Below are positions 124 through 29,203 of a DNA stretch of 29,203 bases, in pieces. The stretch lies in the sequence record NC_049392.1. The stretch is one strand, 5' to 3'. The stretch comes from Escherichia phage ESSI2_ev239. The notes under the pieces are model-generated. The model was not told where the DNA came from. It searched no databases and saw nothing but the letters and a program-made list of their open reading frames with translations. The position numbers and the translations under genes are program-made. The number at the start of each line of letters is the position of its first letter. The stretch's first letter is position 1.

Positions 124-152
124 TGTAGCGCCGTTTTCGTCACTTCCGCCAT
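1..152 (-). CDS. Tail-fibre paralogue, N-terminal fragment (ORF runs off the left edge); possible second fibre gene or recombination remnant
   Basis: Minus-strand ATG at 150-152 opens a frame reading MAEVTKTALH followed by [40 protein letters not shown], identical to residues ~63-102 of the 524-aa fibre. An in-frame stop lies upstream at about 204-206; no clear Shine-Dalgarno. Confidence 0.35.
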   Translation of the reverse strand, partial: MAEVTKTALHRTGVVNENGVVYSVVLGADVGDFSFNWIGLLNKASGTLAM

Positions 153-306
153 TATTTCGTCGCGGCAGGCTGTATCAGCGCCTTGCTGCGCTACTGAAGT
201 TAATCAGGTTGGGATGAACGGGTGCAGATAATTACGGCGCTCAGAATGCGTCTGGTGAGGTCTGGTGGATACGATAAAGCCCGCATAATGCGGGCTGGTT
301 GAGTAA

Positions 307-5403: not shown

Positions 5404-5413
5404 AAAAACCTCC

Positions 5414-6007
5414 TTACAAACTCGCGCTGAATGTTGCGCTGCGGGCTTCCGTCCCTGCTAACGTCGCCGGGTAAACCACATATTCCCCCTGATCCCACCC
5501 GGCCCTGATAACCAGGCTTTCAGACGTGATCACCTCAAACTGATAACGGCGGCATGTTCGCCCGTACTGGCGGATTATCTGGATCAGCAGCTGCGTGTTG
5601 TCCGCAATCTGGCTGTCTGTCACCCGAACAAGAATCACATCCCAGTCGATATCCGGTTGCCGTTCTAACAGCTCCACATAACCAATTCCCAGCCGTTCAA
5701 AGATATTGATAAACCCCTCTACTGAACCGGCATCCCGCGCATTCACGAAGGCAAAAGCCACGCGTTTGCGGAACAGGGTCAACGGTTCACCATCAAAGCG
5801 GGTGATATCCCGGTCATAAGCCAGCAGATTCAGTAATGCCGGTGTACACGTCAGCGGATCAAACTGGTTCATTGGCCAGGTAACCCAGCCGTAAACCTCA
5901 GCCCAGAACCGCCGCGCCGCTTTCAGCAATTTCCCCGGTTCGCCTTTATTCATCCAGGAAGGCAAGACCATCCCGGCCAGCTTTTTCATGAACTCATTCA
6001 TTCTCAA
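5414..6007 (-). CDS. Baseplate/tail protein, gpI-like by position
   Basis: 197 aa between the J-like gene and the tail fibre gene, start overlapping the J-like stop. Assignment is by synteny with J-I-H order in P2-like and Mu-like baseplates. Confidence 0.45.
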
Positions 6008-7178: not shown

Positions 7179-7504
7179 AAATCCACCTGATATGAAAGCG
7201 TGCCAAAATCGTATGTGCTCGCGGTCACCCACAGCCGTTTCTGGCTTTCTTCACTGATTTCCACCGTTCCCGGCACAATGCGCTCATCGTTTTCAACCAG
7301 TAATTCCAGTTGTGTAAAAATATCTGCCCTCAGTGTCGGACTGCGTTCCGCAATTAATTGCGTGGCTAATCCGCTCTCAATAATGGCGTGAATAATGTCC
7401 TGCCCGATACTTTTTCGGTTATTGCATAATTCAGGCTCATTACCGGCATTTAATGAAAAGTCACCATTCTCAATAAGCAGGTCAATATAAAGGGCTTCAC
7501 TCAT
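7175..7504 (-). CDS. Putative baseplate wedge protein (gpW/gp25-like)
   Basis: 109 aa; ATG overlaps the tape-measure stop (ATGA) and its stop overlaps the J-like start. Size and position typical of gpW/gp25; sequence similarity is weak by eye. Confidence 0.45.
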   Translation of the reverse strand: MSEALYIDLLIENGDFSLNAGNEPELCNNRKSIGQDIIHAIIESGLATQLIAERSPTLRADIFTQLELLVENDERIVPGTVEISEESQKRLWVTASTYDFGTLSYQVDL

Positions 7505-9468: not shown

Positions 9469-9913
9469 TCCGTGCCTTTAAATGCGGTGCTGATTCCGTT
9501 AGCAACCGCTATTCGCATATTTTCCCAGTGGCGATTATCCAGCCAGATGGCAGCGGAAATATCATCCACGGAATCCTGACCGTGTGGTAAATAATGGCGA
9601 CGCAAAATTAAATACTGTTCGAGTCCGTTCTGTTCAATTGCCCGGACTCGTTTTGTCAGTTTTTTACTTCAATTTCCAGTTCTGGCGCATAAAGCTCATT
9701 CACTTTCCCGGCAAGCTGGAGCGCTGCACCCGGACGTTTCAGAATGTCTTCCAGCGCTTCTTTACTTTCAGCAGACACAATGCGTACAAGATAATTGTGT
9801 GCAGGTGCCACTTTATTATCCATCGCCATTTCGTTGATGAACTTATTATAAGCGGTCTGATTCGGTTCAAAGATAATTTCTTTTTTGCATACAACCAGAT
9901 TAATTTTTTCCAT
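9465..9913 (-). CDS. Tail assembly chaperone, -1 frameshift fusion product (G-T / E-E' type)
   Basis: The -1 frame is open from the slippery heptamer at 9659-9665 to a TGA at 9465-9467 that overlaps the tape-measure ATG. Predicted fusion is about 149 aa (...EIEVKKLTKRVRAIEQNGLEQYLILRRHYLPHGQDSVDDISAAIWLDNRHWENMRIAVANGISTAFKGTE). Confidence 0.5.
9656..9913 (-). CDS. Tail assembly chaperone (zero-frame product)
   Basis: 85-aa ORF immediately upstream of the tape measure gene, ending ...EIEVKN with a TGA stop. Confidence 0.6.
   Translation of the reverse strand: MEKINLVVCKKEIIFEPNQTAYNKFINEMAMDNKVAPAHNYLVRIVSAESKEALEDILKRPGAALQLAGKVNELYAPELEIEVKN
9659..9665 (-). promoter_or_regulatory. Programmed -1 ribosomal frameshift slippery site A_AAA_AAC
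   Basis: Minus-strand AAAAAAC (plus-strand gttttttt) covers the last two sense codons of the chaperone (AAA AAC), two codons before its stop. Confidence 0.5.
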
Positions 9914-10199
9914 AAATAACGTTCTCTCTTAAATTAATTTCATCAACAAGCGCGTTATGCCGTGCAGCACACTGCCCGTATAACTCCAGATAAAGTGTCA
10001 GTAATTCCGCCGCGTCTTTTCCCTGCTTTCCACTCAGGCGCGGCAGCTGCGTGGCGCATTTAGTTTTCAGGTTTTCCTGATAACGTACGTTCGGTACTGG
10101 TGACGGCGTCGTTGTACATGCGGACAAAGTCATCAGACAGACACTTATTGGTAAATACCGGCCTAACCACTTCCGTGCGGATTTCACGCGGTGGCGCAT
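9900..10199 (-). CDS. o-spanin (Rz1-like outer-membrane lipoprotein)
   Basis: N-terminus MRHRVKSARKWLGRYLPISVCLMTLSAC carries a signal peptide and an LSAC lipobox. Starts inside the i-spanin gene in another frame and extends beyond it. Confidence 0.55.
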   Translation of the reverse strand: MRHRVKSARKWLGRYLPISVCLMTLSACTTTPSPVPNVRYQENLKTKCATQLPRLSGKQGKDAAELLTLYLELYGQCAARHNALVDEINLRENVIYGKN

Positions 10200-10392
10200 T
10201 TTTCAGTGCCTCCAGTTTGTCTTCCAGCCGGCGACCGGATGAACCGGCAATTTCAGCCAGTTGTTCCCCGGTCGCGGTGACCGCTTTTGAGACAGTCAGA
10301 TCAACACTGTCCCGCTTCCAGCCGGCCGTTTTCCAGCCAGCTATAAATGCCAGAGCAAGGGTGAATAACCAGCCTGACACGACGCGATCCAT
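10060..10392 (-). CDS. i-spanin (Rz-like)
   Basis: 110 aa with one N-terminal transmembrane segment (WLFTLALAFIAGW) and a charged periplasmic region; immediately downstream of the endolysin. Confidence 0.55.
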   Translation of the reverse strand: MDRVVSGWLFTLALAFIAGWKTAGWKRDSVDLTVSKAVTATGEQLAEIAGSSGRRLEDKLEALKNAPPREIRTEVVRPVFTNKCLSDDFVRMYNDAVTSTERTLSGKPEN

Positions 10393-10733
10393 CAGCGCAC
10401 CCCGTTATGTTCCAGGCTGAAATGATTACCATCAGGGCGGGATTTGAAGCGACCGCCCCATGAACCACCCAGCGATTCCCAGTATTCGCCCAGCGGCAGA
10501 TACGCCGCGCTGTTGGTCTGATACTGGCCATTAATGAACAGATTGAAGTCCACGGCCAGACGCTGCGTGTGCAGACTATTGGAAATGCCGCTGCCTTTTT
10601 TCGCGTTCATTGCAGCCTGTTCCGGGGTACGGTAAGCCTCACCAAACGTCAGTCGGTAGCCATGTTCTTCAGCCCACTGAATCAGATTTGCCACCATAAC
10701 GGTAAAGAGTTGCTGTTTTTCGCTCAGAGTCAT
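10392..10733 (-). CDS. Endolysin, peptidase M15 family (L-alanyl-D-glutamate peptidase type)
   Basis: 113 aa with zinc-binding signature SLHTQRLAVD ... GNHFSLEH (H-x6-D plus a second His) typical of VanY/M15 endolysins; sits between holin and spanins. Confidence 0.7.
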   Translation of the reverse strand: MTLSEKQQLFTVMVANLIQWAEEHGYRLTFGEAYRTPEQAAMNAKKGSGISNSLHTQRLAVDFNLFINGQYQTNSAAYLPLGEYWESLGGSWGGRFKSRPDGNHFSLEHNGVR

Positions 10734-11026
10734 TTCCCTGTCCCTTTATCAAAAATCCCTGTAAAACCCCGCTTACGCAGCCAGGCTTCCACCGCATTCT
10801 GCCCCAGAATACCCAGCGCGGAGCCAAATCCGGCCAGCGCGAGCGGATGAATATCCGGGACAAAGTACAGCGCCACCCCGGCAATCAGTGACAGCCCGCT
10901 GCCCACAATGACACGCCCCGCCACCAGACGAAGGGTGATCGGTTCATCACTGTTAAGCAATTTACCCAGCGCAATCAGCGCCCCCATGACTGCCAGTGCA
11001 ATGAACCCCTTTTCGTACTCCTGCAT
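10730..11026 (-). CDS. Holin (predicted 3 transmembrane segments)
   Basis: 98 aa with three hydrophobic stretches and a basic C-terminus (RKRGFTGIFDKGTGK); directly upstream of the endolysin with overlapping stop/start. Confidence 0.6.
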   Translation of the reverse strand: MQEYEKGFIALAVMGALIALGKLLNSDEPITLRLVAGRVIVGSGLSLIAGVALYFVPDIHPLALAGFGSALGILGQNAVEAWLRKRGFTGIFDKGTGK

Positions 11027-11038
11027 CCCTGCTGCCTC

Positions 11039-11494
11039 TTATCCAATCAGGTTTTCCGTGGCTTCCGCTTCCAGATACGGCACACCGTTGATGTTGACGA
11101 ACTTCGGACTTGTCACGAAGTATTTGATTTTATGCGTGGACACACTGCCACCCTTCGGATCACCATCCAGAACGCTGTTGAGCTGCAGCTTGTTACCAAA
11201 GGTTTCCACCTTCATTTCTTCGCTGCCGGCTTTGGCGTAAAAAAGGAAGTCAACCGGGGGAATACCACGCCATGACCCCGCTGAACGGGCTTTGGCTGTC
11301 AGAACCTGCAGCACTTTGGAGCTGACTTCAATTTCACCCTCGGCGGCAACGTCACCGTCCACATACCCGTCAGGAACACCGCGCGTCTGTGCGGCGGCAC
11401 TGTTATCGGTAATATCCAGCGAAATTTTTTCAATGTGGATCAGGTCACCGTCCAGATAGATATCAAAGGACATCCCTGAAATACGTTTGGTCAT
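11039..11494 (-). CDS. Putative tail tube protein
   Basis: 151 aa immediately downstream of the sheath-sized gene with overlapping stop/start. Assignment by size and order only. Confidence 0.4.
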   Translation of the reverse strand: MTKRISGMSFDIYLDGDLIHIEKISLDITDNSAAAQTRGVPDGYVDGDVAAEGEIEVSSKVLQVLTAKARSAGSWRGIPPVDFLFYAKAGSEEMKVETFGNKLQLNSVLDGDPKGGSVSTHKIKYFVTSPKFVNINGVPYLEAEATENLIG

Positions 11495-12618
11495 GCGCTG
11501 GCCTCCAGACTTGCATCCAGTAACAGACTGATGGTGATCTGCAGCGGTACTTCATACGTACGCACCACAATGTAAATATCCACCGCCTTTTTGTTCTTCC
11601 AGACAATGGTCACGTCACCGTCCTGTGGAGGTTTCACCTCGCCCGGAAATGACACGCCGTTAATGCTGGCCGCAGTGGACATTTCCCGCAGCGGACGGGC
11701 AAACAGCGTCTGGTGTGCGGCAATACTGCCCGGTGTACTGTTAAGTGAGCGATCGGCAATCTTACCGATGGCCAGCAGACGGACGCGGCGTGCTGCCTTA
11801 TCCACAATACGCAGCGTCTCGATGGACTGGTAATCACCGCCCTCAACGTCCAGCGTGCGCCCGTCAGCCCAGTAAAAGCCGTCATAGTCCGGATACCACA
11901 TCGGCACGCTGTAGCGCTGAGCTTCCAGCGCCTGAAGGGTCGCCAGTTCCAGCGTTTCGCCGGTACCGTCTTTCGGCAGTTCATCGCTTCCTGGACTCAG
12001 CAACGCGCCTGTTTTCACCCGCGCCGGACTGTCGGCAATAGTGACAGCACGGTTGCAGAGACGACCAGCCAGCACGCCCGGTTCATTCCCCCAGAGACGG
12101 GGTACCAGTTGTACCGCTTTTTCCGCGATACCTTCCTGAAGGGTGGACAGACGCACCAGATAATCCGCCTGGGTTTCATCCTGCTGCATCCCCTGAACCG
12201 CCAGAATGAACCACACCCAGCGCCCGTATTTAGCAATCAGTTCAGATCGCAGCGTTGCCGCCTGATTAATCTGCGCTTTCGCGGCCACATCATCAGACAG
12301 CACCACACCTTCCACCGAACAGGAGACCTGTGCGGCCTTAACGGCATCCACCCATGCCCCCGGCTCGCTGTCTGCGGCCAGCACATGAACAAATCCCCAC
12401 CAGTTCTGGCCGGCGTTCGCCAGTGCGGCCAGCACATCACTTTTTAACGGGCTGTCACCCTCGCCCAGCAGCGCATCAAAATCACTCTGTGCGTTAACTG
12501 CCAGCGTCTTACCTACATTTTTGGTTCCCGTGCCGATAAACAGCAGCGTGCGCTCCACTTCCGTGGTTTCACCCAGCAGCTGATTTACCTGGTTTACGGT
12601 CACAATTGGCCAGGTCAT
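11491..12618 (-). CDS. Putative tail sheath protein
   Basis: 375 aa between tail completion-like genes and the tube-sized gene. Assignment by size and order only; not visibly similar to P2 FI. Confidence 0.4.
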   Translation of the reverse strand: MTWPIVTVNQVNQLLGETTEVERTLLFIGTGTKNVGKTLAVNAQSDFDALLGEGDSPLKSDVLAALANAGQNWWGFVHVLAADSEPGAWVDAVKAAQVSCSVEGVVLSDDVAAKAQINQAATLRSELIAKYGRWVWFILAVQGMQQDETQADYLVRLSTLQEGIAEKAVQLVPRLWGNEPGVLAGRLCNRAVTIADSPARVKTGALLSPGSDELPKDGTGETLELATLQALEAQRYSVPMWYPDYDGFYWADGRTLDVEGGDYQSIETLRIVDKAARRVRLLAIGKIADRSLNSTPGSIAAHQTLFARPLREMSTAASINGVSFPGEVKPPQDGDVTIVWKNKKAVDIYIVVRTYEVPLQITISLLLDASLEASA

Positions 12619-13319
12619 GCTCTCCCCCTGATATCCTGCGCGTTAACATCCCAGCCGAACCCGATAGCCTGCAGCTGTCGCGCCAGCGCTTTGTTAAAAT
12701 CGTCCTGACCTATCCCCAGAAACGCCCTGGCAGGTAAATCAATCTGCCAGGACGTTTTGACCGGTTTGTCCTCCAGTATCCGGATAAGCAAACCTGCCTG
12801 TCTGGCGGTCATCCTTTCCTGTATTTCCTTATAACCGGGCTTACGCCAGCGCTTACCGCGCCTGACTTTATACCCGGCCTTGCGCAGACGTTTCGCCTGT
12901 CGCAGTGATGCAGGCTTGTCTCCCTGCTCACGGCCTTCCACCTGCTTACGGTTGACGGTCACGCTCATGCCGTTCTGCTGGACATACCCCACCACGCCGG
13001 CAGGCAGATTTCCCTTCGCATTCCGGTAATGACCACCGGCCAGATACAGCCTGACCGACTCTGTTTCAGGCATTTCCCGGATGCGGATCAGTTTCGGCAT
13101 ATTGCGCAACATTTTGCCTTTACGCCGGGTCTGTCGCGCCTGCCACTTATCACCCTCCGGCGACTGCTGATTGCGCACATTACGCTTTGCTGCGGCTTCC
13201 ACGCCGTATTTCGCTATACGCCACAACAGCCGGCGACGTTTCGCAGAAGGTAAATCCAGCTTTTTCAGCGCCTCCTGGAGCTGGCGGAACTGTTCCTTGT
13301 TCAGCTCGCCATTTATCAT
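12615..13319 (-). CDS. Phage virion morphogenesis / tail completion protein (gpS-like)
   Basis: 234 aa with a strongly basic C-terminal half; position after the head completion gene and before the sheath corresponds to gpR/gpS. Confidence 0.5.
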   Translation of the reverse strand: MINGELNKEQFRQLQEALKKLDLPSAKRRRLLWRIAKYGVEAAAKRNVRNQQSPEGDKWQARQTRRKGKMLRNMPKLIRIREMPETESVRLYLAGGHYRNAKGNLPAGVVGYVQQNGMSVTVNRKQVEGREQGDKPASLRQAKRLRKAGYKVRRGKRWRKPGYKEIQERMTARQAGLLIRILEDKPVKTSWQIDLPARAFLGIGQDDFNKALARQLQAIGFGWDVNAQDIRGRA

Positions 13320-19133: not shown

Positions 19134-20149
19134 AGAAACGCAAATTCCGGGAGCGCCGCAGCGCCCCAAAACCGCGTCATATGAGCCTTATCAGCCTGGG
19201 TAAGCCTGAACCCATTCTGACCACCGGCACAAACTATACCGATGTGTGGTACGACAACGAGGCAGAGCACTGGACGCTGCCGATTGACCGGCTGGCACTG
19301 GCGCAACTGGTGAACCTCAATGCACAGCACGGCGGCGTGCTGTATGCCCGTCGCAATATGGTGTCGGCAAACTATGAAAATGGCGGGCTTACGCATGAAC
19401 AGCTGGGGGCGGCAGTATTCGACTGGCTAACGTTCGGTGATGTGGCCATTCTGAAGGTGCGCAATGGATGGGGGGATGTGGTGGCGCTGTATCCGCTGCC
19501 GGCGCTGTACACCCGGCAGCGCAAAACCGGAGAATTCGTCGTGCTGCAACAGGCTGAACCAATGATTTACCCCCCTGAAGATATCATCTTCCTGAAGCAG
19601 TACGACCCGCAGCAGGCGGTTTATGGCCTCCCGGACTACATCAGCGGCATTCATTCCGCACTGCTGAACGGTGAGGCAACTATCTTCCGCCGCCGTTACT
19701 ACCACAACGGCGCTCACACCGGGGGCATTATCTATTCCAATGACCCGAACATGACCGACGAAGTGGAAGAAGAGATTATCAGCAAGCTGGAACAGTCGAA
19801 GGGGATCGGGAATTTCAGCACCATGTTCGTGAATATTCCCAAAGGCGATCCGGACGGCATCAAATTTATTCCGATTGGCGATATCAGCGCCAAAGATGAG
19901 TTTCAGAACATCAAGAGCATCAGCGCCCAGGACGTTCTGACCGCGCACCGCTTTCCGGCCGGACTGGCGGGGATTATCCCGACGAACGGCGCAGTAATGG
20001 GAGATATTGAGAAAGCGGCTAAAACCTACCGTAAAGCTGAAATTTTACCCGTTCAGCGTATGTTTGCGGCAGCGATTGCTGGCCAGAGCGATATTCCACA
20101 GCATTTGTACCTGAATTTCCTGAAAGACAGCGAGCTGGAAGGTGATTAA
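19130..20149 (+). CDS. Q: Portal protein (P2 gpQ family)
   Basis: 339 aa; overlaps the terminase stop by 4 nt; P-then-Q order as in the P2 PQ operon. Confidence 0.85.
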   Translation: MKKRKFRERRSAPKPRHMSLISLGKPEPILTTGTNYTDVWYDNEAEHWTLPIDRLALAQLVNLNAQHGGVLYARRNMVSANYENGGLTHEQLGAAVFDWLTFGDVAILKVRNGWGDVVALYPLPALYTRQRKTGEFVVLQQAEPMIYPPEDIIFLKQYDPQQAVYGLPDYISGIHSALLNGEATIFRRRYYHNGAHTGGIIYSNDPNMTDEVEEEIISKLEQSKGIGNFSTMFVNIPKGDPDGIKFIPIGDISAKDEFQNIKSISAQDVLTAHRFPAGLAGIIPTNGAVMGDIEKAAKTYRKAEILPVQRMFAAAIAGQSDIPQHLYLNFLKDSELEGD

Positions 20150-20202: not shown

Positions 20203-20472
20203 ATGCGGGTACTAAAAGTAAAATGTCCGGAGTGCGGGGCAAAAGCGATCATCAAAAAGACGAATCCCAAGCACCCCCATATTTCAGATATTTACTGCGC
20301 CTGTTCTGACGTGGAATGCGGTCATACCTTCGTGCTTAACCTGACGTTCTCCCACACATTAAGCCCCAGTGCCAAGACCGGGGACTTGATGGTGCAGACG
20401 ATCCTCAATTCCTTCTCGCCAGAACAGAAGCAAATGACGCTGGATTTATTGAAAGCCGGAATGGCTGCATAG
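20203..20472 (+). CDS. ogr: Ogr/Delta-family zinc-finger late transcription activator
   Basis: Track ORF starts at 20149; preferred start is MRVLKVK, preceded by GGAG. Cysteine spacing C-x2-C-x22-C-x4-C (CPEC ... CSDVEC) matches the Ogr/Delta zinc finger. Confidence 0.7.
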   Translation: MRVLKVKCPECGAKAIIKKTNPKHPHISDIYCACSDVECGHTFVLNLTFSHTLSPSAKTGDLMVQTILNSFSPEQKQMTLDLLKAGMAA

Positions 20473-20475
20473 AAA

Positions 20476-20495
20476 AAGGCACCGTAAGGTGCCTT
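20476..20495. terminator. Bidirectional intrinsic terminator between convergent ogr and early operon
   Basis: Perfect hairpin aaggcacc-gtaa-ggtgcctt flanked by A/T runs on both sides, between the ogr stop (20472) and the stop of the minus-strand gene (20500). Confidence 0.55.
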
Positions 20496-20499
20496 ACTT

Positions 20500-20751
20500 T
20501 TACGCGCTTGCCTCAGTCTTGATAAAGGCAATGCCATCTTTAAGGAATGCGTGATAGTTTCTCCCACTCAAAGGGGAGTGAACCACAGCAGTAAGCGGCA
20601 ACAAAACATCAACAACGTTAGCAAATTGCTCAAAACTGATATCGAAGTGCTCCATTGTCAGTTCATCAAAATCAGTCGTTTCATATAGTTCATCGCTGAT
20701 ATTAAAAATTCCCATCAGCAATTCCTCATACGAAAAATAATTTTGCTTCAT
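20500..20751 (-). CDS. Small acidic hypothetical protein (candidate accessory, anti-defence or exclusion factor)
   Basis: 83 aa, rich in D/E/F; last gene of the early operon, in a region visibly AT-richer than the structural genes. Confidence 0.5.
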   Translation of the reverse strand: MKQNYFSYEELLMGIFNISDELYETTDFDELTMEHFDISFEQFANVVDVLLPLTAVVHSPLSGRNYHAFLKDGIAFIKTEASA

Positions 20752-20773
20752 TTATTCGCCCTATAATTATTCG

Positions 20774-21145
20774 CTAATCAATAATCTTAATGGTCATATC
20801 ATCCGAATCAAAAACGCCGGACACATCAACCCCTGTAATTTTGATTCCCTCAGAACCGTCCATTGGAGGCCATCCCTCCTGCCCGTTACCTTCTTTCCAG
20901 TCAAATTCACATACAACACCATATGTATTAAAGTTATTCTCAAGTGCAATGAGCATCGCATGTTGTGCCAGCATAATTAAGACGGCATTAAGTACAGATT
21001 CATGCTTCATGAGACGATATTTAGCTTCCGACCAGAAATTGTTAATTTCATGTAATTTTTCTTCTGTCATTACATCGTGGTCAATTTCAATATCAATCTC
21101 CGCTTTCCAGTCATAATCCACGGTATATCTTTTGACATTTGTCAT
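20774..21145 (-). CDS. Acidic hypothetical protein (candidate accessory, anti-defence or exclusion factor)
   Basis: Track ORF 20774-21238; preferred start is MTNVKRYT, preceded by AAGGGG at 6-7 nt, about 10 nt after the primase-helicase stop. Roughly 123 aa, acidic, no domain I can name. Confidence 0.5.
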   Translation of the reverse strand: MTNVKRYTVDYDWKAEIDIEIDHDVMTEEKLHEINNFWSEAKYRLMKHESVLNAVLIMLAQHAMLIALENNFNTYGVVCEFDWKEGNGQEGWPPMDGSEGIKITGVDVSGVFDSDDMTIKIID

Positions 21146-21155
21146 TATTTTCCCC

Positions 21156-23882
21156 TTATTTTTCCCTACGGAATATCCAGCAACGGAATGTATCCGGCAT
21201 GCGTTGCATTTCACCTTTGCCACGGTTATGGCGTTCACTCACTGCGCTGCGCGTGGTTTTGGTGTCGATAAAACGGCGCTCGTTGCCGTTTTTAAGCAGC
21301 TTTTTAATCTCGGTTAAAGTAAACGGAATACGCTGCCGGTGGGCGGCGGCGACTTCTTCCAGATGGTTAAAATTGACCGCTATTTCACCTTCATCCGATG
21401 AATGGTTAATACCATGCGGTGCCAGCTCGTCGAGGTAGTCAAACAGCTCCCAAAACTCCTGCACCAGAGGGTGATCCTTTTTAAGCGCCTGACACCGTTC
21501 CACGGCCAGCGCGGTGATGGCCTCGCGGGTCTTCTCAATACGCTCCACCGGCACCGGCACAACCAACGCCAGCGCTTCCAGCAAACCGACCAGTTGCGCA
21601 TGGTTTTTGGCGATACGGATATGGCGGATATTGGTATTAGACTCCAGCTCGCCACGGGCGCGTTCGTAGCCCTGGCCAAACACCTTCATGATTTCTTTTT
21701 CACGCATAGTGGCCAGCAGGGTGAAACCAGATACCTGGCTGACTGGGATCTGCTCAAGGCGTTCAGCGGCATAGCGGGTCTGAATAGACTGGCCACGCTT
21801 GTCGGTATAGATGTGGATGATACGCTCCAGAAACGCCTTACTGCCGTCTGTGTCGGCGTTCTGCGCTATCACTATGCTGCCCCTGAATGGCGGCTCGTAG
21901 GTCTCGTTATTGTTCGATTTGATACCCACAGCGCGGGAGGCGCGACCGTTATACAGTGATTTCAGCTCGTCCCAGTCAAAAGCGCGTTGTTTAGCGTTAT
22001 CGGTAGTACGGTCGCCCTCAATCAGCACAACCGGCAAATTACCGACCTGCGCAAAGTTACGGCCACGCGCTGCGGCTGTCGATTTGGAAGGATCAAACCC
22101 TTCATACTCTTCACGGCCGGCGAGTTTCCACAGAAATTCAATCAGCGTGGATTTACCTGTTCCCGGTTCCCCCACGATTTCAAGAAACGGGAAAGACTTG
22201 TCACGCTCGCGGATTTGCTCAGCAAACAGCGACCCCAGCCAGAACGCCAGAGCCACATACCCTTTTTCACCAAAAGCCGTCCAGATATCGTCTACCCAGC
22301 CCGTAGTAAATTCGTTCAGCTTCGGATTCAGATCCAGCGACGGCGTGAGGCTCAGGCTCTTGACGCTGGCGCTGTTGATTTCGAAATAATCTTCATCGTT
22401 CATTTCGTACAGCCGGCCATCACAAACAGCCACGCGATTAAACAGCCATGCAGCATAATCCTTGTTATAGCCAATGAAATTTTGCGTCTTAACCTCTTTG
22501 ATTTCAGGGAGGCGCATCTGGATGAACTTATCCAGCTGTTTGGTACTGCCGGTGTACACCGCACCTTTGGCGATATGCAGCAGACGTTTTTTAAACTCGG
22601 CGGAACTGGTTAACTGGTTGGCCGTGAAAGTATCTTTCACGGCTGGCCGGTTCGGCATATTGACCTTCACGTAATACCAGGACTCGTCTGTAGGTTCAGA
22701 CCGCTGGAAGTAAAGCGGCGTCAGCCAGCAGTTGGCGATTTCAGTCACGCCACCTGACTCTTTAACCGCCCGTTCTTTGGCCTCCCACTCCATCACCACT
22801 TCAGTACCGGTATTGGTGATGCGCTCATAAGCTCGCATGTACCTGTCCAGATCCAGCTCAAACCAGTACATGCGGGAGTTATGCTCAAAATAGAACGAAT
22901 GCCACTCGTTATGCTGATGCATGAGCAACGCTTTTTCAGTCGGGCTTTTCGCCAGAAGGATATCGCCATAGTAGCGATAATTTTTGATGTCCGATTTGCT
23001 GAACCGCCCACGTAAAAGCAGGTCATTCCAGTCCAGACTGGAGGATGATTTCACCGGCTGCGCCGCGCGAACTTTCCAGCCGGCTTCCTCGCTACGGGCA
23101 GCAAAGGCCAGCGTGTGCTTAGTGCCAGCTCTGTCACCATCAAACGCCCATATCAGGCGTGGGCGGGGTTTCTCGCCCAGCTCTTTAGCCAGGGTATCCA
23201 GCGCCACCAGTGGGTAATTATTGCTGCTCAGTGTGGCCACAGCGGGTAAACCCGCCTGGCACAGGCTCAGCGCGTTGAAGATGCCCTCAGTGATCCAGAT
23301 TTCATTCACTTCCAGCAGGTTCACAGACGGCGGAACCCACCAGTGGCCAACGTAGCTGCCTCTGATGTTCGCTTTCTGCTTACCAAAGCGCTGCGGCTGG
23401 TCAATGATGCGCTCCCATGTCGCACCGCAGGTCAGCTTAAATCTGACGGTTGCCGACCCCATACCATCTTTGGCAAACGCCCCCTGGGTAAAGCAACCTT
23501 TCAGCGGTTCAGTATCCAGCCCTCTCGCCTCGCGCAGATACGCCTCAGCTACCGCATGAGGGTTATCTTCTGTGGCCTGGTACCGTTTTGACCAGTCTTC
23601 AAAAATATCCGGATACAGCTCTTTGACAACGACCTGATGGCCGCAGTTGTTTTCGCGGCCGCACTTCAGGATCCAGGGCTTTTCTATGCTGGTAAATAAT
23701 TCACGTTTGTGGCATTTAGGGCAAACGCCCTGTTGCAGATATTTATCCCGTTCCTTGAATTCAAAATCCTGAACGAGTCGGCACACAACGTCCTGCTGTA
23801 TTGTGGCATTCATAATTAATCCAGATGTAGAAAGGTGTGAAAGGCAAAAACTATATTCGGTATTGTTTGTTATATCGCTCAT
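21156..23882 (-). CDS. Replication primase-helicase (zinc-finger + Toprim primase + P-loop NTPase; P4 alpha-like architecture)
   Basis: 908 aa with CPKCH...CGRENNCGH zinc motif, Toprim-like EGIFNA and AFDGDRAG, and Walker A GEPGTGKS. Start may be the internal MNATIQ (about 23813). Confidence 0.75.
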   Translation of the reverse strand: MSDITNNTEYSFCLSHLSTSGLIMNATIQQDVVCRLVQDFEFKERDKYLQQGVCPKCHKRELFTSIEKPWILKCGRENNCGHQVVVKELYPDIFEDWSKRYQATEDNPHAVAEAYLREARGLDTEPLKGCFTQGAFAKDGMGSATVRFKLTCGATWERIIDQPQRFGKQKANIRGSYVGHWWVPPSVNLLEVNEIWITEGIFNALSLCQAGLPAVATLSSNNYPLVALDTLAKELGEKPRPRLIWAFDGDRAGTKHTLAFAARSEEAGWKVRAAQPVKSSSSLDWNDLLLRGRFSKSDIKNYRYYGDILLAKSPTEKALLMHQHNEWHSFYFEHNSRMYWFELDLDRYMRAYERITNTGTEVVMEWEAKERAVKESGGVTEIANCWLTPLYFQRSEPTDESWYYVKVNMPNRPAVKDTFTANQLTSSAEFKKRLLHIAKGAVYTGSTKQLDKFIQMRLPEIKEVKTQNFIGYNKDYAAWLFNRVAVCDGRLYEMNDEDYFEINSASVKSLSLTPSLDLNPKLNEFTTGWVDDIWTAFGEKGYVALAFWLGSLFAEQIRERDKSFPFLEIVGEPGTGKSTLIEFLWKLAGREEYEGFDPSKSTAAARGRNFAQVGNLPVVLIEGDRTTDNAKQRAFDWDELKSLYNGRASRAVGIKSNNNETYEPPFRGSIVIAQNADTDGSKAFLERIIHIYTDKRGQSIQTRYAAERLEQIPVSQVSGFTLLATMREKEIMKVFGQGYERARGELESNTNIRHIRIAKNHAQLVGLLEALALVVPVPVERIEKTREAITALAVERCQALKKDHPLVQEFWELFDYLDELAPHGINHSSDEGEIAVNFNHLEEVAAAHRQRIPFTLTEIKKLLKNGNERRFIDTKTTRSAVSERHNRGKGEMQRMPDTFRCWIFRREK

Positions 23883-24069
23883 GCGTCATTAATTCCCAAT
23901 GTCTGCCCTTATCTTTACTCAGTAACCGCCAGCGATAAGAGACATGTACAGACAAATAATGATGCGGTTTTATAACCTGATATACTTTTTTGCCGCTGTA
24001 ATATTCTGTCAGCACTGATAATGCCTTGTGAATGACACTTTCACTCGCATGAGAGGTCACTGTCAGCAT
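23851..24069 (-). CDS. Small hypothetical ORF upstream of the primase-helicase
   Basis: 72-aa ORF overlapping the annotated primase start by about 30 nt; no motif; may be spurious if the primase starts at 23882. Confidence 0.3.
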   Translation of the reverse strand: MLTVTSHASESVIHKALSVLTEYYSGKKVYQVIKPHHYLSVHVSYRWRLLSKDKGRHWELMTHERYNKQYRI

Positions 24070-24071
24070 AG

Positions 24072-24632
24072 TTATTTCACACTGGCTATTTTGACAAGAT
24101 ACATCCAGACATAAGAAACAATCTTTATGTTGTGGATTGCATGGTTATACGCATTGCGAGTGAAAGTATACGGAATAATACTGTCCATATTAAGCCCCAG
24201 CGTCGAGGCAAGTTCAACAATCGTAATAACGGATTGCTCATTACCGTGGGTAAAACACTGCACTGCAAACTTATTCAAAACATGCCGCAACACAGAACTG
24301 TGCAGTGATGGACACCCGTTCCATAACTTCACGCTCGCGGGATCAGCATTTTCATTAACGAATGAGTAGAAATCACAGATAGCCAACTCTATATCTTGAC
24401 AATCGTCATCAAGCAACTGACAACGGACTTCAGAGGGTTGACGTAACCACCACTCTATAGCTTCCGCACTGACTGTACCACCGTTACTCATCGAATCATC
24501 AAGACTGATGCGACGATAAAATGTTTCGCCGATTTCACCGGTTTCAGGATTAAAGAAAATTGCAGCAATAGCCGTAATTGCTGCGGTGGATTTATCATCC
24601 ATTGCTTCAATGTCAATCATTAAATGTTTCAT
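24072..24632 (-). CDS. Putative 3'-5' exonuclease (DEDD / DnaQ-like, Rv2179c-like)
   Basis: 186 aa starting MKHLMIDIEAMD, the D-x-E exo I motif seen in small DEDD exonucleases common in prophage early regions. Confidence 0.55.
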   Translation of the reverse strand: MKHLMIDIEAMDDKSTAAITAIAAIFFNPETGEIGETFYRRISLDDSMSNGGTVSAEAIEWWLRQPSEVRCQLLDDDCQDIELAICDFYSFVNENADPASVKLWNGCPSLHSSVLRHVLNKFAVQCFTHGNEQSVITIVELASTLGLNMDSIIPYTFTRNAYNHAIHNIKIVSYVWMYLVKIASVK

Positions 24633-24641
24633 CGCGATTCC

Positions 24642-24977
24642 TTAACGGTTAGATGTTGCAACAGGTTTAAGATGGGAATTATTGCTTTTTAATGCAGATG
24701 TAGCCAATGACATAAGACCGGAAATATTATTTTCAGTTGGTATATTCCCGCCAAAAACCATTAGTGTAATTTTGTGAAGCTCTTCAAAATCTTCACAGTC
24801 ATTATTAAAGCGTGCAGTGGATGTTATACCCTCAAGACATTTTGCAAGCTGGATATTTAATTCCATTAACTGCAAACCATCGCTATGGACAGAGAATGTT
24901 TCTTTTTCAATCGCGTTTGCCTGTGCATGGTAATTTTGCAAAAGGCTACGAATCAGGGTCGCATATTTAGTTTTCAT
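24642..24977 (-). CDS. Hypothetical early protein (occupies the P2 orf78/B position after cox)
   Basis: Track ORF 24642-25004; start moved to Met 10 (MKTKYATL) so it follows the cox stop. No recognisable domain. Confidence 0.4.
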   Translation of the reverse strand: MKTKYATLIRSLLQNYHAQANAIEKETFSVHSDGLQLMELNIQLAKCLEGITSTARFNNDCEDFEELHKITLMVFGGNIPTENNISGLMSLATSALKSNNSHLKPVATSNR

Positions 24978-24979
24978 AA

Positions 24980-25249
24980 TTAAAGCCCTAACCACATTAG
25001 CCACGCATCGCGTTGTGCTTTTGGTTTTTTTGCAAATGCAAGTCGGATGCCTTTATTAAATTCCTCAATACAAATCAGTTTCTCCGTACGCGCTCCAGGC
25101 TTCTCCGGATCCTGAATTTCAATAAAAGGAATTTTGTCCGCTTTAACCATCATATCCACGGCATTTTTAGACTTACCCAACAGCTCCGCGAACTTCTCAG
25201 TTGTCACCCCTTCGAGCGGGTACTTGATAAGCAAATCATCAAGGTTCAT
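24980..25249 (-). CDS. cox: Cox-like excisionase / lytic-switch regulator
   Basis: 89 aa, back-to-back with the C repressor gene; C-terminal RDAWLMWLGL resembles the P2 Cox C-terminus as I recall it. Confidence 0.65.
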   Translation of the reverse strand: MNLDDLLIKYPLEGVTTEKFAELLGKSKNAVDMMVKADKIPFIEIQDPEKPGARTEKLICIEEFNKGIRLAFAKKPKAQRDAWLMWLGL

Positions 25250-25345
25250 GTGTTATCCTCCGTTTTGCAAACCTTTGCAGACCGTTCTAGAACACTCTGG
25301 AACATTCCACATGTGACACATTACAAAATGGAGGATATTCCTTAC
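25250..25345. promoter_or_regulatory. Immunity switch region between cox and C (candidate Pe/Pc promoters and operator repeats)
   Basis: 96-bp intergenic region containing two pairs of direct repeats spaced about one helical turn apart: TTTGCAAAC / TTTGCAGAC and GAACACT / GAACATT. Confidence 0.4.
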
Positions 25346-25666
25346 ATGGCACATATGTCAAGTATGGGTGAGAAGTTTCGTTTAATCCGCAAGGCTGAGG
25401 GAATGACCCGCCAAGAGTTTGCTGATGCAGTTGGCTTACCTTATGGAACGCTAACGAACTACGAAACAAAGGGTTTCCAAGTAACAGAAGGCGCTCTTAT
25501 GAAGATAACCAAAAACCCAAGATTCAAAAAATACGCTTACTGGCTTTCAACGGACGAAACCATGCCGGAGGTAGGTCAAATATCCCCGGCTCTCTCTCTT
25601 GATGGGTCAGAGCAACCGGAGGATATTCCGGATTTAACCCCCAAAACAGCAAAATCACACCGTTAA
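25346..25666 (+). CDS. C: Immunity repressor (P2 C-like, helix-turn-helix)
   Basis: Track ORF starts at 25013; preferred start MAHMSSMGEKF follows GGAGG at about 10 nt. HTH segment TRQEFADAVGLPYGTLTNYE; about 106 aa, directly upstream of int. Confidence 0.7.
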   Translation: MAHMSSMGEKFRLIRKAEGMTRQEFADAVGLPYGTLTNYETKGFQVTEGALMKITKNPRFKKYAYWLSTDETMPEVGQISPALSLDGSEQPEDIPDLTPKTAKSHR

Positions 25667-25750
25667 AAGCTGAAAATTGGTTAGACCTGTATTTTGAATT
25701 TGCTGACTGCCTGTGGTCGCAGGCCGGAAGCTACATCGGAGGGCTTCGCT

Positions 25751-26734
25751 ATGGCGATTAAGAAGCTCGATGATGGACGTTATGAACTGGACACAAGAGC
25801 GGGCGGACGCACCAGTAAGCGGATCCGCAAAATATTTAACAGAAGGGCTGATGCTGTTGCGTATGAACGCTACATGCTGGGTAAGTTTCAGCGCAAGGAA
25901 TGGGATCCGGCAGCACAGATTGACAGGCGCACGCTGGACGATATCAGAGAATTGTGGTGGCTCTACCACGGCCAGACGCAGAAGAATGGCGAGATTGAAA
26001 ACAGGCATCTCATCAAAACCATTACCGCGCTGGATAATCCGCAGGTAGGCGAGGTTAACAAACGAATGCTGATAGTCCACCGCAGCCGCAGGCTGGCGCA
26101 GGGAATAAGCGCATCCACGGTCAACCGCGATATTTACCGGCTGTCCGGCATGTTCAGCGCACTGATCAAGCTGGATGAGTTTGAGGGGGAAAACCCGCTG
26201 CGTGGTCTGCCTCCCCTGAAAGAGAAAAATCCCGGCATGACCTTTCTCACAAAACCGGAAATTAGCCGCCTGCTGGACACGCTGACGGGCGATTACCGAC
26301 TGGTTGCCCTGCTGTGCCTCAGCACAGGCGGACGCTGGGGAGAGGTCAGTACGCTGACGGAATCGCAGATTATGCACGGCCGTGTCGTATTCCTGGAAAC
26401 GAAGAACGGCAAAAAGCGCGTGGTTCCCATCTCTTCCGAACTGGAAGACGAAATTATGGCCAACGCCAGCGCGGGGCTGTTCCGGGTGGACTATGAAAAC
26501 TTCTGCCGGAAGCTGCGGAAGGTCAAGCCAGACCTGCCACGCGGTCAGGCCACCCACATTCTGCGACACACGTTCGCCAGCCACTTTATGATGAACGGCG
26601 GGAATATCATTGCGCTTCAGCAGATACTTGGCCATGCCAGCATTCAGCAGACGATGGCGTATGCGCATCTGGCACCGGATTATCTCCAGAACGCTATCGC
26701 ACTGAATCCGCTGAAAGGGGGGCTGGGAGTCTGA
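25751..26734 (+). CDS. int: Tyrosine integrase (P2 Int-like)
   Basis: Start MAIKKLDDGRYE, preceded by GGAGGG, matches the P2 Int N-terminus; catalytic region HILRHTFASHFMMNGGNIIALQQILGH...MAYAHL carries the R-H-R-Y signature. Confidence 0.9.
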   Translation: MAIKKLDDGRYELDTRAGGRTSKRIRKIFNRRADAVAYERYMLGKFQRKEWDPAAQIDRRTLDDIRELWWLYHGQTQKNGEIENRHLIKTITALDNPQVGEVNKRMLIVHRSRRLAQGISASTVNRDIYRLSGMFSALIKLDEFEGENPLRGLPPLKEKNPGMTFLTKPEISRLLDTLTGDYRLVALLCLSTGGRWGEVSTLTESQIMHGRVVFLETKNGKKRVVPISSELEDEIMANASAGLFRVDYENFCRKLRKVKPDLPRGQATHILRHTFASHFMMNGGNIIALQQILGHASIQQTMAYAHLAPDYLQNAIALNPLKGGLGV

Positions 26735-26739
26735 TAATT

Positions 26740-26970
26740 CCGTCCACATGTGGACGCATTTTTCCGTTTCGGGACTGCCTGAAACCGCCTGAAACGGAAG
26801 TGTGGACAGTGTGGACGGTAAAATTGGCCTGAAAAGTTTGTAAGTCGTTGAAAAAAAAGACCCCCACATCATGTGGGGGAAGACAGGGATGGTGTTGTTT
26901 TAAAAAGCATAAATCATTGATATTGTTGTATTTATATTGAAATTTCCGTCCACAAAACGTCCACATCGAC
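26740..26970. other. attP attachment site: Int arm-type repeats flanking a hairpin core
   Basis: Left arm GTCCACATGTGGAC (about 26742-26755) and TGTGGACAGTGTGGACGG (about 26801-26818); core hairpin cccccacat-cat-gtggggg preceded by A8 (about 26851-26879); AT-rich spacer; right arm CCGTCCACAAAACGTCCACA (about 26946-26967) in opposite orientation. Confidence 0.6.
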
Positions 26971-27189
26971 CGCAAGCCCCAGTTTCTGGGGCTTTATCAA
27001 AAAAACGTGACGTCTATCACGGTAATGGCGAACTGCAAGAAGTTCGGTTGCCAAATGGCTGATATCGCTTTCTAAATCAATTCAATCTCATATGACATAA
27101 CTACGTTGTGAAACAGGAACTACTGAATGCTGATTCACCATAGATGAAAAAAATGCTAATATCCACAAAAAGGCTAAGCGTAAAATAAA

Positions 27190-28293
27190 ATGAAATATAT
27201 TTTTGAATACGGATTTTATCTCAGCATACTTATAGCGACAATATATGTCACTTCTAAGTTTTTGGGTATTACACCTGCAAAACATAAATACGCCTCACTT
27301 GATGGCTTACGTGGAATTTGTGCAGCAATGGTTGCTGTATTCCATCTTTACTGGAGAGCCGGAGGAGAATCAGATATATACTGGTCTCTTGAGTACATTA
27401 CACTCAGCAATGTAAAACGCGCCATATATCTAACAGGTGAGTTATCTGTTGGTGTATTTTTTATGCTGTCTGCTTTTTTATTTTTCAAAAAGGCACTGGC
27501 GAACTCCTTCGATGTAAAAAGTTTTGCAATTTCACGATTCATGCGAATTTACCCACCTGTAGTGGTTCTTTTATTTATAATATATATTGCAACATTTATC
27601 ATGAATCCGGATGACCATACTCCAGTATCGCAATGGTTTATACCTTCATTACCATTTATATTCAATCCACCTGGAGCTAACATCAATGGTGTATCGCTCC
27701 AGATTGCCACATCTGGTGTGTTCTGGACGTTAGTCTGGGAATTACGCCTATACCTTGCAATTCCATTTTTATATCTGATAATGAAAAACATAAAATATAA
27801 AGAAGCATTTGTTATTTTTTTAATGGGATGTATTTTGTTATTCAAGTATTTTATAAATAATGAACAATACCTGAGTTATATAATGTATTTCCTTGCCGGA
27901 TTTCTTGTCGCTACAATCAAGAGTAACAAGCGCCCATCAGATATAATCTGCGTTTTATTATTATTCGCAGCTATATATTTCACTCGACATGCTTACAACA
28001 CTACAACTCCGCTTTATATGTTTGTTATTTTCTACACAATAAAGTGCGGATGTGATTACTTTGGCTTACTTACATCCCTGCCTGTAACTATGCTGGGAAC
28101 CTGCAGTTTCTCCCTTTATTTAGTTCATGGGATAACTCAGACAGTATCTAAACATTATTTATATAGCACAGGAAACTATGTTTGGCAGATTTGTGCAATT
28201 ATTGCGGCAGGTATCATTGCGCCGGTTATGTACAAATATGTCGAAAGTCGCAGCATCATACATAAGCCTCCTCACCTTCAGATTGCAAAGTAG
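27190..28293 (+). CDS. Acyltransferase family 3 integral membrane protein (candidate O-antigen O-acetyltransferase, lysogenic-conversion moron)
   Basis: 367 aa, about 10 hydrophobic segments, N-terminal signature LDGLRGICAAMVAVFH typical of the Oac/OafA-type acyltransferase-3 family; markedly AT-rich compared with the phage backbone. Confidence 0.75.
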   Translation: MKYIFEYGFYLSILIATIYVTSKFLGITPAKHKYASLDGLRGICAAMVAVFHLYWRAGGESDIYWSLEYITLSNVKRAIYLTGELSVGVFFMLSAFLFFKKALANSFDVKSFAISRFMRIYPPVVVLLFIIYIATFIMNPDDHTPVSQWFIPSLPFIFNPPGANINGVSLQIATSGVFWTLVWELRLYLAIPFLYLIMKNIKYKEAFVIFLMGCILLFKYFINNEQYLSYIMYFLAGFLVATIKSNKRPSDIICVLLLFAAIYFTRHAYNTTTPLYMFVIFYTIKCGCDYFGLLTSLPVTMLGTCSFSLYLVHGITQTVSKHYLYSTGNYVWQICAIIAAGIIAPVMYKYVESRSIIHKPPHLQIAK

Positions 28294-28322: not shown

Positions 28323-28387
28323 TCCCACCGCGCTGTTAAAATTTTGTTTCGTCTCACCCCGCATTTTTAAGTTGCCCATCGGAAAAA

Positions 28388-28653
28388 CGTCACAACCATC
28401 ACACATCAAAGAAACACCACCTATCCACATGATTATCATGAATAAAATTTGTGACGGTAAAACCATCACAAAACGTAACACAAACCGTCACACTCAATAA
28501 ATTCAGCGAGTTATAAAACAGAGCTGTGATGTTTTAAGGCCGTCACACTGTGATGCTCTTGTGATAGTTTTGTGATGGTTTTCAATATATGAATTTACTT
28601 ATACATATCATATAGATAAATGATATTTTTAAAATCTGTGATGTTTGTGACGG
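28388..28653. repeat. Iteron-like array of about 11 TGTGA(C/T)GG motifs in both orientations (candidate replication origin or regulator binding array)
   Basis: Motif copies at about 28388, 28396, 28450, 28463, 28485, 28524, 28540, 28548, 28571, 28636 and 28646, several as inverted pairs; AT-rich block (tatatgaatttacttatacatatcatatagataaatgatattttt) lies inside; no ORF of 60 aa or more. Confidence 0.5.
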
Positions 28654-29126
28654 TTTTCCGATGCTCCCCCTCAATTTTTGAAAAAATAAGAAGTGGTCAG
28701 AAATCACCCTGATTTGTTGGTGAGTTTGTTTCTCTCTCTGTTACTGATTTGGTTACTGGTGGCAGCATGTGTGCACAGGGATGGGAGCAGACGGATCTGT
28801 GCAAGGTATTTCAGTTGTGCCGGTTCGTACAGTTCCCCGTAAACCCGTGCCAGCTGCGGCTTTCTGTTTTTAAACGCTTACGAGAGCCGGCGCCGGCCGT
28901 TACGTAAAAAATCACGTAATCACAACTCATCCCGCATGGCTCAGGGCTTTAGCTCCTGTTACGCCCTGCCTTCCATCGCACAAAAACTGAAATCTTTGAA
29001 ATCTGTTTCACACATTTCAGTTTGAGATCTGGTCTCAAAGCCCCAGCGCTGGCGCGGTCTGGCGGTATGTTTTGTACCCCCGGAAAAACTGAAATCATTC
29101 TCAACACGAAAACCGCAGGCGGGGGC

Positions 29127-29203
29127 CTGTCTCTTATACACATCTCCGAGCCCACGAGACTCCTGAGCATCTCGTATGCCGTCTTCTGCTTGAAAAAAAA
29201 AAA
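29127..29203. other. Sequencing adapter contamination (Nextera read-through adapter with 8-nt index, P7 tail and poly-A)
   Basis: CTGTCTCTTATACACATCTCCGAGCCCACGAGAC + TCCTGAGC + ATCTCGTATGCCGTCTTCTGCTTG + A11 is the standard Nextera i7 adapter structure; not biological sequence. Confidence 0.9.

Follow-up and report, generated by a model that had tools for sequence, protein, structure and literature searches.

In phage P2 the gene A protein (gpA), an HUH rolling-circle nickase, is encoded in the early operon downstream of cox and initiates replication by nicking. Some P2-like phages are already known to carry a DnaG-type primase in place of gene A, namely phiCTX, Smp131 and RSY1, and in the papers on Smp131 (PMC3931495) and RSY1 (PMC5694545) the gene is called DNA primase-like or DnaG-type with an inferred role in replication. 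In the literature searched, nothing was found on the origin or the Rep biochemistry of phiCTX, RSY1 or Smp131. The alpha protein of satellite P4, which acts on iterons, is a single polypeptide in which a zinc ribbon and a Toprim primase are combined with a P-loop helicase and, at the C-terminus, a DNA-binding region. Among the initiator helicases of the staphylococcal islands, PriRep5 and Rep1 are placed in helicase superfamily 3 (SF3), and the SaPIbov1-type Rep and Cch in an MCM-like group; in the SaPI origins an AT-rich region is flanked by oppositely oriented iterons, to which the winged-helix domain of Rep binds (PMC9371898). The gene treated here, rep, is located on the minus strand of Escherichia phage ESSI2_ev239 (NC_049392.1), and the window, that is the whole stretch of 29,203 nucleotides analysed, is the complete genome (29.2 kb) of a P2-like (Peduoviridae) phage, assembled in circularly permuted form. 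From its sequence and a structure model the product, Rep, is a replicative primase-helicase with a Cys4 ribbon, a Toprim primase of the DnaG/T7 gp4 type, a self-loading AAA+ helicase and a C-terminal winged-helix-like region, and a 290-bp iteron element elsewhere in the genome is its candidate origin.

Rep, its domains and its relatives

The open reading frame (ORF) at 21156–23882 on the minus strand exists and codes mechanically for 908 amino acids (aa). The true start is probably M24, the ATG at 23813, giving a coding sequence of 21156–23813 and a protein of 885 aa, since the close homologues are mostly about 880–905 aa long, cover 97% of the query and begin at the equivalent of M24. The rep genes of E. 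coli and Salmonella encode 885 aa, and the ATG at 23813 is located 38 nt past the stop codon of a ParE-like ORF, with which the upstream ATG at 23882 overlaps. Rep matches PHROG 1139 ('DNA primase') with E=0, residues 26–907 of the ORF against profile positions 2–890 of 895. All other residue numbers refer to the 885-aa protein (M24 = residue 1), and residue invariance was scored over 38 Rep homologues.

A tblastn search of 50,697 phage records gave 38 Rep matches, all with at least 96% query coverage and 29–46.5% identity, and the P2-like phages phiCTX (orf37), Ralstonia RSY1, Stenotrophomonas Smp131 and Pseudomonas Dobby are among them. The phiCTX orf37 family (including RSY1 ORF47 and Smp131 orf39, numbered gp40 in RefSeq) is colinear with Rep at 39–46% identity over 96–98% of the length, with 41–46% over 97–98% for phiCTX orf37, RSY1 and Smp131, and 41% over 97% for orf37 itself. 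In these three phages the gene is likewise found in the early region of a P2-like genome that also carries an element of terminal inverted repeats (TIR) plus iterons, whereas the window differs from them in its enterobacterial host, its ESSI-2-like structural module and an iteron core of GTGAY instead of GTAAT or GTAAC. The best deposited phage record does not exceed 46.5% identity, and prophage homologues at 85–98% are common. In bacterial genomes 1,420 Rep-family matches were found among 8,000 candidates scored, one Salmonella cluster of the family comprises 1,064 sequences at 92% identity, and the enterobacterial homologues are named 'toprim domain-containing protein' or 'bifunctional DNA primase/helicase' in RefSeq. 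The early module recurs at 87.7% nucleotide identity in E. coli prophages at raiA-pheL, in about 20 of 5,426 complete genomes, and the whole early module is also found in Salmonella. By these alignments Rep is a full-length member of the phiCTX orf37/PHROG 1139 family, native to P2-like phages and common in enterobacterial prophages. The sequence-only reading had seen a satellite-type replicon and a notable mosaic; the replicon is not of the satellite type and the mosaic is not new, as P2-like carriers of this family have long been in the sequence records. The alignment of the annotated Smp131 primase to the family is lost over the last ~150 residues (L113, 27600–27958) and tblastn splits it into two pieces, which suggests a frameshift or a sequencing error in the deposited record.

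Near its N-terminus Rep has a Cys4 zinc ribbon, C31-P-x-C34...C51...C57 (23643–23723, minus strand, as for all parts of rep), with four invariant cysteines and a beta-ribbon in the AlphaFold2 (AF2) model; by Pfam only weak generic zinc-ribbon matches were obtained for the N-terminal 100 aa (E about 0.007). A Toprim catalytic domain of the DnaG/T7 gp4 type follows at aa 172–268 (23010–23300), scoring 44.4 bits on Toprim_3 (cut-off 27.2) and 41.7 bits on Toprim_2 (cut-off 22.1). The Toprim glutamate (E176) and the aspartates of the DxD motif (D225-x-D227) are conserved, E176 and D225 being invariant. Positions 21714–22916 encode a beta-rich N-terminal tier (aa ~300–500) and an AAA+ core (aa ~520–700) assigned by Foldseek, with the P-loop G548-EPGTGKS-T556 (Walker A, 22146–22172), a Walker B-like VVLIEGD and an invariant sensor-like N652. 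The protein ends with a helical lid and a winged-helix-like domain (21159–21713), which may serve in origin recognition. The zinc-finger, Toprim and P-loop motifs that had been read from the letters of the large early gene are thus all there.

Sequence searches of the PDB with Rep (phmmer and profile) retrieved neither Cch nor SaPI Rep, and the only matches were weak ones to DnaG Toprim and P-loop proteins, so that structure prediction was needed. In the AF2 model (pLDDT 86.5) the N-terminal ~290 residues give primase-type matches and the C-terminal ~520 residues helicase-type matches. With Foldseek the Toprim region resembles DnaG RNA-polymerase domains and a T7 gp4 primase fragment (PDB 5w33, 4e2k and 1nui, E 4e-6 to 1e-5). 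For the C-terminal ~520 residues the best matches in the PDB are SCCmec Cch (5dgk, E 1.7e-15, TM score 0.60 normalised to target) and SaPIbov1 Rep (8tch, E 8e-11), together called 'Rep2-type', and both were recovered again when the C-terminal domain was searched alone; SaPI1 Rep1 (7pds, deposited as PriRep1), poxvirus D5/E5, SV40 large T antigen and MCM rank far lower. According to the model, Rep has the three-tier fold of Cch and SaPIbov1 Rep, that is an N-terminal domain, an AAA+ core and a C-terminal winged-helix domain. The resemblance is structural only, at about 9–13% sequence identity, and Rep differs from both in being fused to a DnaG-type primase, in belonging to phages of Gram-negative hosts instead of staphylococcal islands, and in a candidate origin that here is not immediately downstream of rep. 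With the DnaG and T7 gp4 primases Rep shares the zinc ribbon and the Toprim RNA-polymerase domain with its conserved acidic residues, but the helicase partner is an AAA+ domain of the Cch type and not a RecA-fold SF4 helicase as in T7 gp4 or DnaB.

The comparison with P4 alpha gave much less. BLASTP found two short colinear high-scoring segment pairs, both with E 0.002, covering the Toprim domain (34% identity over 94 aa) and the Walker A region, and hhalign aligned the Toprim region only (alpha aa 184–345, probability 83.6%); the two Toprim domains are homologous. P4 alpha scores on Zn_Ribbon_Prim (PF08273, 66.9 bits), D5_N (PF08706), DUF5906 and Pox_D5. In Rep, Zn_Ribbon_Prim has no match on the N-terminal 100 aa even at E<=10, D5_N and Pox_D5 are undetected by Pfam, and the Pox_D5-type C-terminal origin-binding winged helix of alpha (PDB 1ka8) is not matched. 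The closest solved relative of alpha by sequence is PriRep5 of SaPI5 (7ola, E 1.3e-7), an entry missing from the listed 50 Foldseek matches of Rep, which are headed by Cch and SaPIbov1 Rep. The iterons differ as well, as the P4 type I iteron (TGTTCACC) occurs once in the window, where 1.06 matches are expected, and forms no cluster. Since alpha is nearest to PriRep5 in SF3 and Rep is nearest to Cch and SaPIbov1 Rep in the MCM-like group, the two proteins share the type of primase but belong, in their helicase and origin-binding halves, to different branches of the self-loading initiator helicases. Rep is therefore not a member of the P4 alpha family, to which the sequence-only reading had likened it, and is a distant cousin with a likeness in architecture and in the primase half only. 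Of the domains named in that reading, Toprim was found above its cut-off and D5_N was absent, while the SF3 helicase core DUF5906 stayed below threshold.

Nor is Rep related to the nickases. Phage_GPA (PF05840) gave no Pfam match on Rep and none elsewhere in the window, tblastn with the GPA protein of ESSI2_ev129 found nothing in the window, and between Rep and P2 gpA there is no similarity in sequence or domains; initiation by Rep would proceed by melting plus priming. It had been foreseen that the large early gene encodes a replicative primase-helicase and not a nickase, and that it was exchanged as a module, and both points are borne out, the second by comparison with the nearest structural relatives. 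The tail and head genes (window 1–12750) have 89% nucleotide identity to Escherichia phage ESSI2_ev129, with Cronobacter phage ESSI-2 more distant, and in both of these phages the map position of rep, between ogr/portal and cox, is occupied by a Phage_GPA nickase of 679 aa (E 1e-104).

In a linkage survey of 21 loci related via the portal gene, all portals with at least 91% identity were linked to Rep at 92–98% identity (in E. coli, Salmonella, Enterobacter, Erwinia and Pseudocitrobacter), and those at 60–69% were linked to GPA in nine cases and to the Rep family in one (Arsenophonus). Among deposited phage records 384 are of the GPA type and 38 of the Rep type. Judged by these comparisons, the replication-module swap relative to the nearest structural kin is real, and it is not unusual. 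Ralstonia phage RSA1 is 90–99% identical to RSY1 in head and packaging proteins, and its 934-aa 'DNA primase' (L206, 31802–34606) has a Toprim_3 domain, the remaining length being unrelated to both the orf37 family and P4 alpha. By sequence this protein is a third type of replicase in P2-like phages, so the Peduoviridae contain at least three types of replication modules (GPA, the orf37 type and the RSA1 Toprim protein) that exchange independently of the packaging module, evidently freely among these phages.

A candidate origin near the inferred cos

An unbiased k-mer scan of the window gave two dense clusters, one of TGTGGAC (six copies) by int and one at 28377–28666, to which no strand is assigned. 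The latter is a 290-bp element with 12 GTGAY cores and inverted double iterons at its ends (CATCGGAAAAACGTCACAACCATCACA ... TGTGATGTTTGTGACGGTTTTCCGATG), which are embedded in CATCGGAAAA and TTTTCCGATG, and it contains a 55-bp AT-rich stretch (28582–28636). The motif TGTGAYGGTTT has eight matches in the window against 0.98 expected, and all of them fall within the element. In 14 distinct relatives 63/72 are invariant in the cores against 138/320 outside them. The detector used for the element recovered P4 crr as a positive control and found nothing in 40 shuffles of the window. The layout, with inverted iterons around an AT-rich region, resembles that of the published SaPI origins (PMC9371898).

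Other places and other roles were considered for these sequences. In the region 20400–25300 there are only scattered two-copy repeats and no iteron cluster beside, inside or just after rep, so an origin next to or inside rep was rejected. A function of the array as integrase arm sites was also rejected, as the separate TGTGGAC cluster abuts int and the array is 1.3–6 kb from attP in the window, in Smp131 and in a Vibrio island (L008).

The TIR-plus-iteron architecture is present in every Rep-family element examined for which the relevant DNA was available, with GTRAN cores that are specific to the lineage: GTAAT in phiCTX, where it coincides with the annotated R3 repeats, and in RSY1; GTAAC in Smp131, the Vibrio island L008 and an E. 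coli island (L111); and GTAAG in an Arsenophonus prophage (L017). The distance between element and rep is 0.1–0.8 kb in L017, L008/L155, L145 and L176. In the GPA-type phages ESSI-2 and ESSI2_ev129 the element is absent, and only the cos-proximal sequence is in common with the window. A scan of IMG/VR with the terminal-repeat signature gave 107 stretches, of which 74 were classed as genuine, and with the earlier ones there are 79 element-bearing loci. As far as sequence comparison goes, the element tracks Rep and not the terminase or cos, with one exception described below. From these features, and by analogy with the SaPI origins, we think it likely that the element at 28377–28666 is the origin of replication on which Rep acts.

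Several observations weigh against this reading. In the window rep and the element are separated by 4.6 kb across int and attP, which places them at opposite ends of the prophage, and in most genomes the element is found near cos or the portal gene, which would fit a packaging role too. With part of each contig available, a rep gene is present in the DNA of only 10 of the 79 loci; seven of these ten are strong matches to Rep, two are weak and one is GPA. This last one is the single exception to the association between Rep and the element, an otherwise ordinary GPA-type P2-like prophage (L138, IMGVR_UViG_3300025308_000005) with an intact element at 3305–3599 that has ATTAC 12 times and is located between the portal/methyltransferase and the early genes. 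In the GPA-type prophage of E. coli EC42405 (L022) a 57-bp fragment of the element remains. The intact element and the fragment may be orphans left by rep swaps. As for the protein, the helicase core DUF5906 scores 22.9–25.8 bits on Rep, below the cut-off of 27.6, and is matched by 16 of the 38 family members with a best E of 1.4e-4, and no biochemical work on any orf37-family member was found in the literature searched. Beside the element remnant, the EC42405 prophage also has CATCGCT seven times in tandem (19877–19931), and it encodes ParM and a partition protein.

Taken together, the best explanation, which we hold with good confidence, is that Rep is the replication initiator of the phage and forms with the iteron element a theta replicon that replaces gene A. 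The steps would be as follows, on the model of SaPI Rep, Cch and the published SaPI origins (PMC9371898). Rep would be made from the early promoter along with the other products of the cox operon and would recognize the GTGAY iterons of the 28377–28666 element by its C-terminal domain. On the inverted iteron sets two hexamers would be loaded in head-to-head orientation and would melt the DNA of the element, most plausibly at the AT-rich stretch. The helicase would then unwind the DNA in both directions and the fused primase would prime it for the host polymerase, resulting in theta-type replication and not in the rolling circle of P2 A. The enzymatic activities, the binding of Rep to the iterons and the mode of replication are inferred. 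Rep and the element would thus constitute a portable replicon found in phiCTX, RSY1, Smp131, many P2-like prophages of enterobacteria and at least two satellite-like islands.

The rival that has most in its favour, although we regard it as rather unlikely, accepts Rep as replicative but takes the element to be a cos-associated packaging site, similar to cosB and used by the small terminase subunit, with the origin elsewhere, for example inside rep as in P2 A or lambda O. The element is indeed 0.2–0.5 kb from cos in the window (where cos is inferred), phiCTX and RSY1, in 44 of the 79 IMG/VR loci no marker was found nearer to it than the portal gene, which stands where cos is located in P2-type genomes, and the exceptions L138 and L022 keep this explanation alive. 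However, RSA1 and RSY1 have nearly identical terminases (gpM 99%, TerL 96%), the same cos and unrelated Rep proteins, and the element is found only in RSY1; conversely, gpM and TerL of the window are closer to those of the element-less ESSI-2 and ESSI2_ev129 than to their counterparts in the element-bearing RSY1 and Smp131. These two comparisons disfavour the iteron array as terminase or cos sites. The inferred cos has its own repeats, ACTGAAA(T)/ATTTCAG in four alternating copies (28808–29089 in the window, 30566–30844 in L002 and 28440–28720 in L003), which are conserved in Toprim-type and GPA-type relatives alike and are sequence-based candidates for the terminase-recognition repeats. The element is also found close to rep in satellite-like islands that have no terminase gene, and an origin inside rep or just after it would have to do without the iteron cluster that was looked for there.

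Very much less probable is that rep is a true orthologue of P4 alpha captured from a P4-like satellite, so that the phage would run on a satellite replicon. The order of domains is the same in both proteins, the weak colinear segments and the hhalign result on the Toprim region point the same way, DUF5906 is touched by both, and satellite-like islands do use the Rep family. But the three hallmark domains Zn_Ribbon_Prim, D5_N and Pox_D5 are found in alpha and undetected in Rep, the nearest solved relatives differ, no cluster of P4 type I iterons was found in the window, and the full-length relatives of Rep are the phage proteins of phiCTX, RSY1 and Smp131. We give hardly any credence to a non-replicative Rep, a defence-associated or accessory Toprim/ATPase enzyme carried as a moron, for which one could cite the ParE-like ORF directly upstream and a weak PADLOC match (E 5e-7) to the DnaG-like domain of DRT-associated proteins. 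That match spans only the roughly 100-aa Toprim region, and PADLOC gave nothing that would make Rep a defence ATPase or nuclease, the outcome that would have spoken against the sequence-only reading. In addition, rep takes the place of gene A in the early operon, its family is conserved in P2-like phages that lack GPA, the closest solved structures are replication initiator-helicases, and neither the early-region ORFs that were searched nor tblastn with GPA and P4 alpha yielded another recognizable initiator.

The early operon and the ends of the window

The order of the early region on the minus strand is cox, an ORF of PHROG 7058, an exonuclease gene, the ParE-like ORF, rep, a DUF2528 ORF and an 83-aa ORF. 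The first gene, cox (24980–25249), encodes a P2-type Cox (Phage_Cox E 5.7e-21, PHROG 272), which agrees with the earlier statement that the operon keeps a P2-like cox. The exonuclease (24072–24632) belongs to the Rv2179c-like 3'-5' family (PF16473, E 8.6e-52), and an exonuclease of this family with 47–49% identity to that of the window is also found upstream of rep in E. coli and Salmonella prophages. Directly upstream of rep is the 72-aa ORF with a ParE-like toxin domain (23851–24069; PF24732, E 8.3e-18), which in the close relatives, prophages of E. coli, Salmonella and Enterobacter, is 86–94% identical and always adjacent to rep. There is no evident antitoxin partner, and in more distant Rep-family members its position is taken by unrelated small ORFs. 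Downstream of rep are the DUF2528 ORF (20774–21145) and the 83-aa ORF (20500–20751), all on the minus strand, and a scan of the sequence found a terminator-like hairpin (20476–20495, minus strand) after the latter, at the end of the early operon.

A promoter-like site, TTGACA and TATCCT spaced by 18 nucleotides (25332–25361, minus strand), is located upstream of cox and with 10/12 is the top promoter match of the region. It is flanked by inverted repeats (25254–25270 and 25321–25337), and by sequence it is the probable early promoter of the cox-to-rep operon. Beyond cox are a C-like helix-turn-helix repressor and a P2-type tyrosine integrase (25694–26734, plus strand; Int_N and Phage_integrase), and beyond the other end of the early operon ogr, the portal gene and the terminase. 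The six copies of TGTGGAC (GTCCACA) at 26733–26974 abut int and are probably, judged from their sequence and place, the attP arm sites. Between attP and the iteron element there is a gene of the acyltransferase family (27190–28293, plus strand) with a low GC content of about 35–37% and a homologue at the raiA end of an E. coli prophage; it is probably a lysogenic-conversion moron.

The right end of the window, positions 29129–29203, is an assembly artefact and not phage sequence, as it consists of read-through into an Illumina Nextera adapter (CTGTCTCTTATACACATCT-CCGAGCCCACGAGAC-index-ATCTCGTATGCCGTCTTCTGCTTG) with poly-A after it, and positions 1–123 duplicate 5096–5218, inside the tail-fibre gene, exactly, so that contig end is chimeric. 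The real circular junction goes from about 29126 to about 117, the same place as the termini of the ESSI-2 record, which suggests that cos is located there (29128/117).

Satellite-like islands and the use of the Rep replicon

The Rep family is also found in islands that resemble satellites. An 11-kb island at tRNA-Arg of E. coli KCJ3K291 (L111; NZ_CP054407.1, 14600–25900) has the P4-like genes for a P4-type integrase, an AlpA-like regulator, a cI-like repressor and an epsilon-type derepression protein (PF25738), together with a Rep 56% identical to that of the window, a second integrase of the P2 type (65%), a P2-family capsid gene and an Ogr/Delta-like activator. It carries a TIR-plus-iteron element with GTAAC cores, and from its gene content it looks like a satellite hybrid that uses the Rep replicon in place of alpha. 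In Vibrio coralliilyticus a 10-kb island adjoining rpoC (L008, 6900–17300) encodes an integrase, an S24 repressor, a cox-like gene product, Rep (50% identity), three Ogr/Delta proteins, a P2-family capsid, a portal and a tail-S protein, with the iteron element about 0.8 kb downstream of rep; the choice lies between a satellite-like island and a heavily reduced prophage.

As members of the Rep family are also used by satellite-like islands, cross-talk between helper and satellite is conceivable. The iteron cores of the islands differ from those of the window, and so specificity seems, from the sequences, more likely than promiscuous cross-activation. If the Rep replicon works as proposed, the specificity or incompatibility of helper and satellite replicons would be set by the iteron core (GTGAY, GTAAC, GTAAT or GTAAG).

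What is new here beyond the DnaG-type primase is the structural assignment of the helicase half to the Cch/SaPIbov1-Rep type and a candidate origin, which make the replicon directly testable. Somewhat short of an even chance, in our estimate, Rep and the 290-bp element represent a previously undescribed portable theta replicon in P2-like phages of Gamma- and Betaproteobacteria and in satellite-like islands, one of these being the P4-like hybrid of E. coli, which has an epsilon-type derepressor, a Delta-like activator and a capsid gene of its own. In large surveys P2-like prophages have been defined by GpA and P4-like satellites by alpha, and variants without these have been reported (PMC13586616, PMC8628076). 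A portable replicon of this kind would explain some of the P2-like prophages and P4-like satellites scored without a primase or alpha, and the Rep family is a plausible occupant of some of these gaps.

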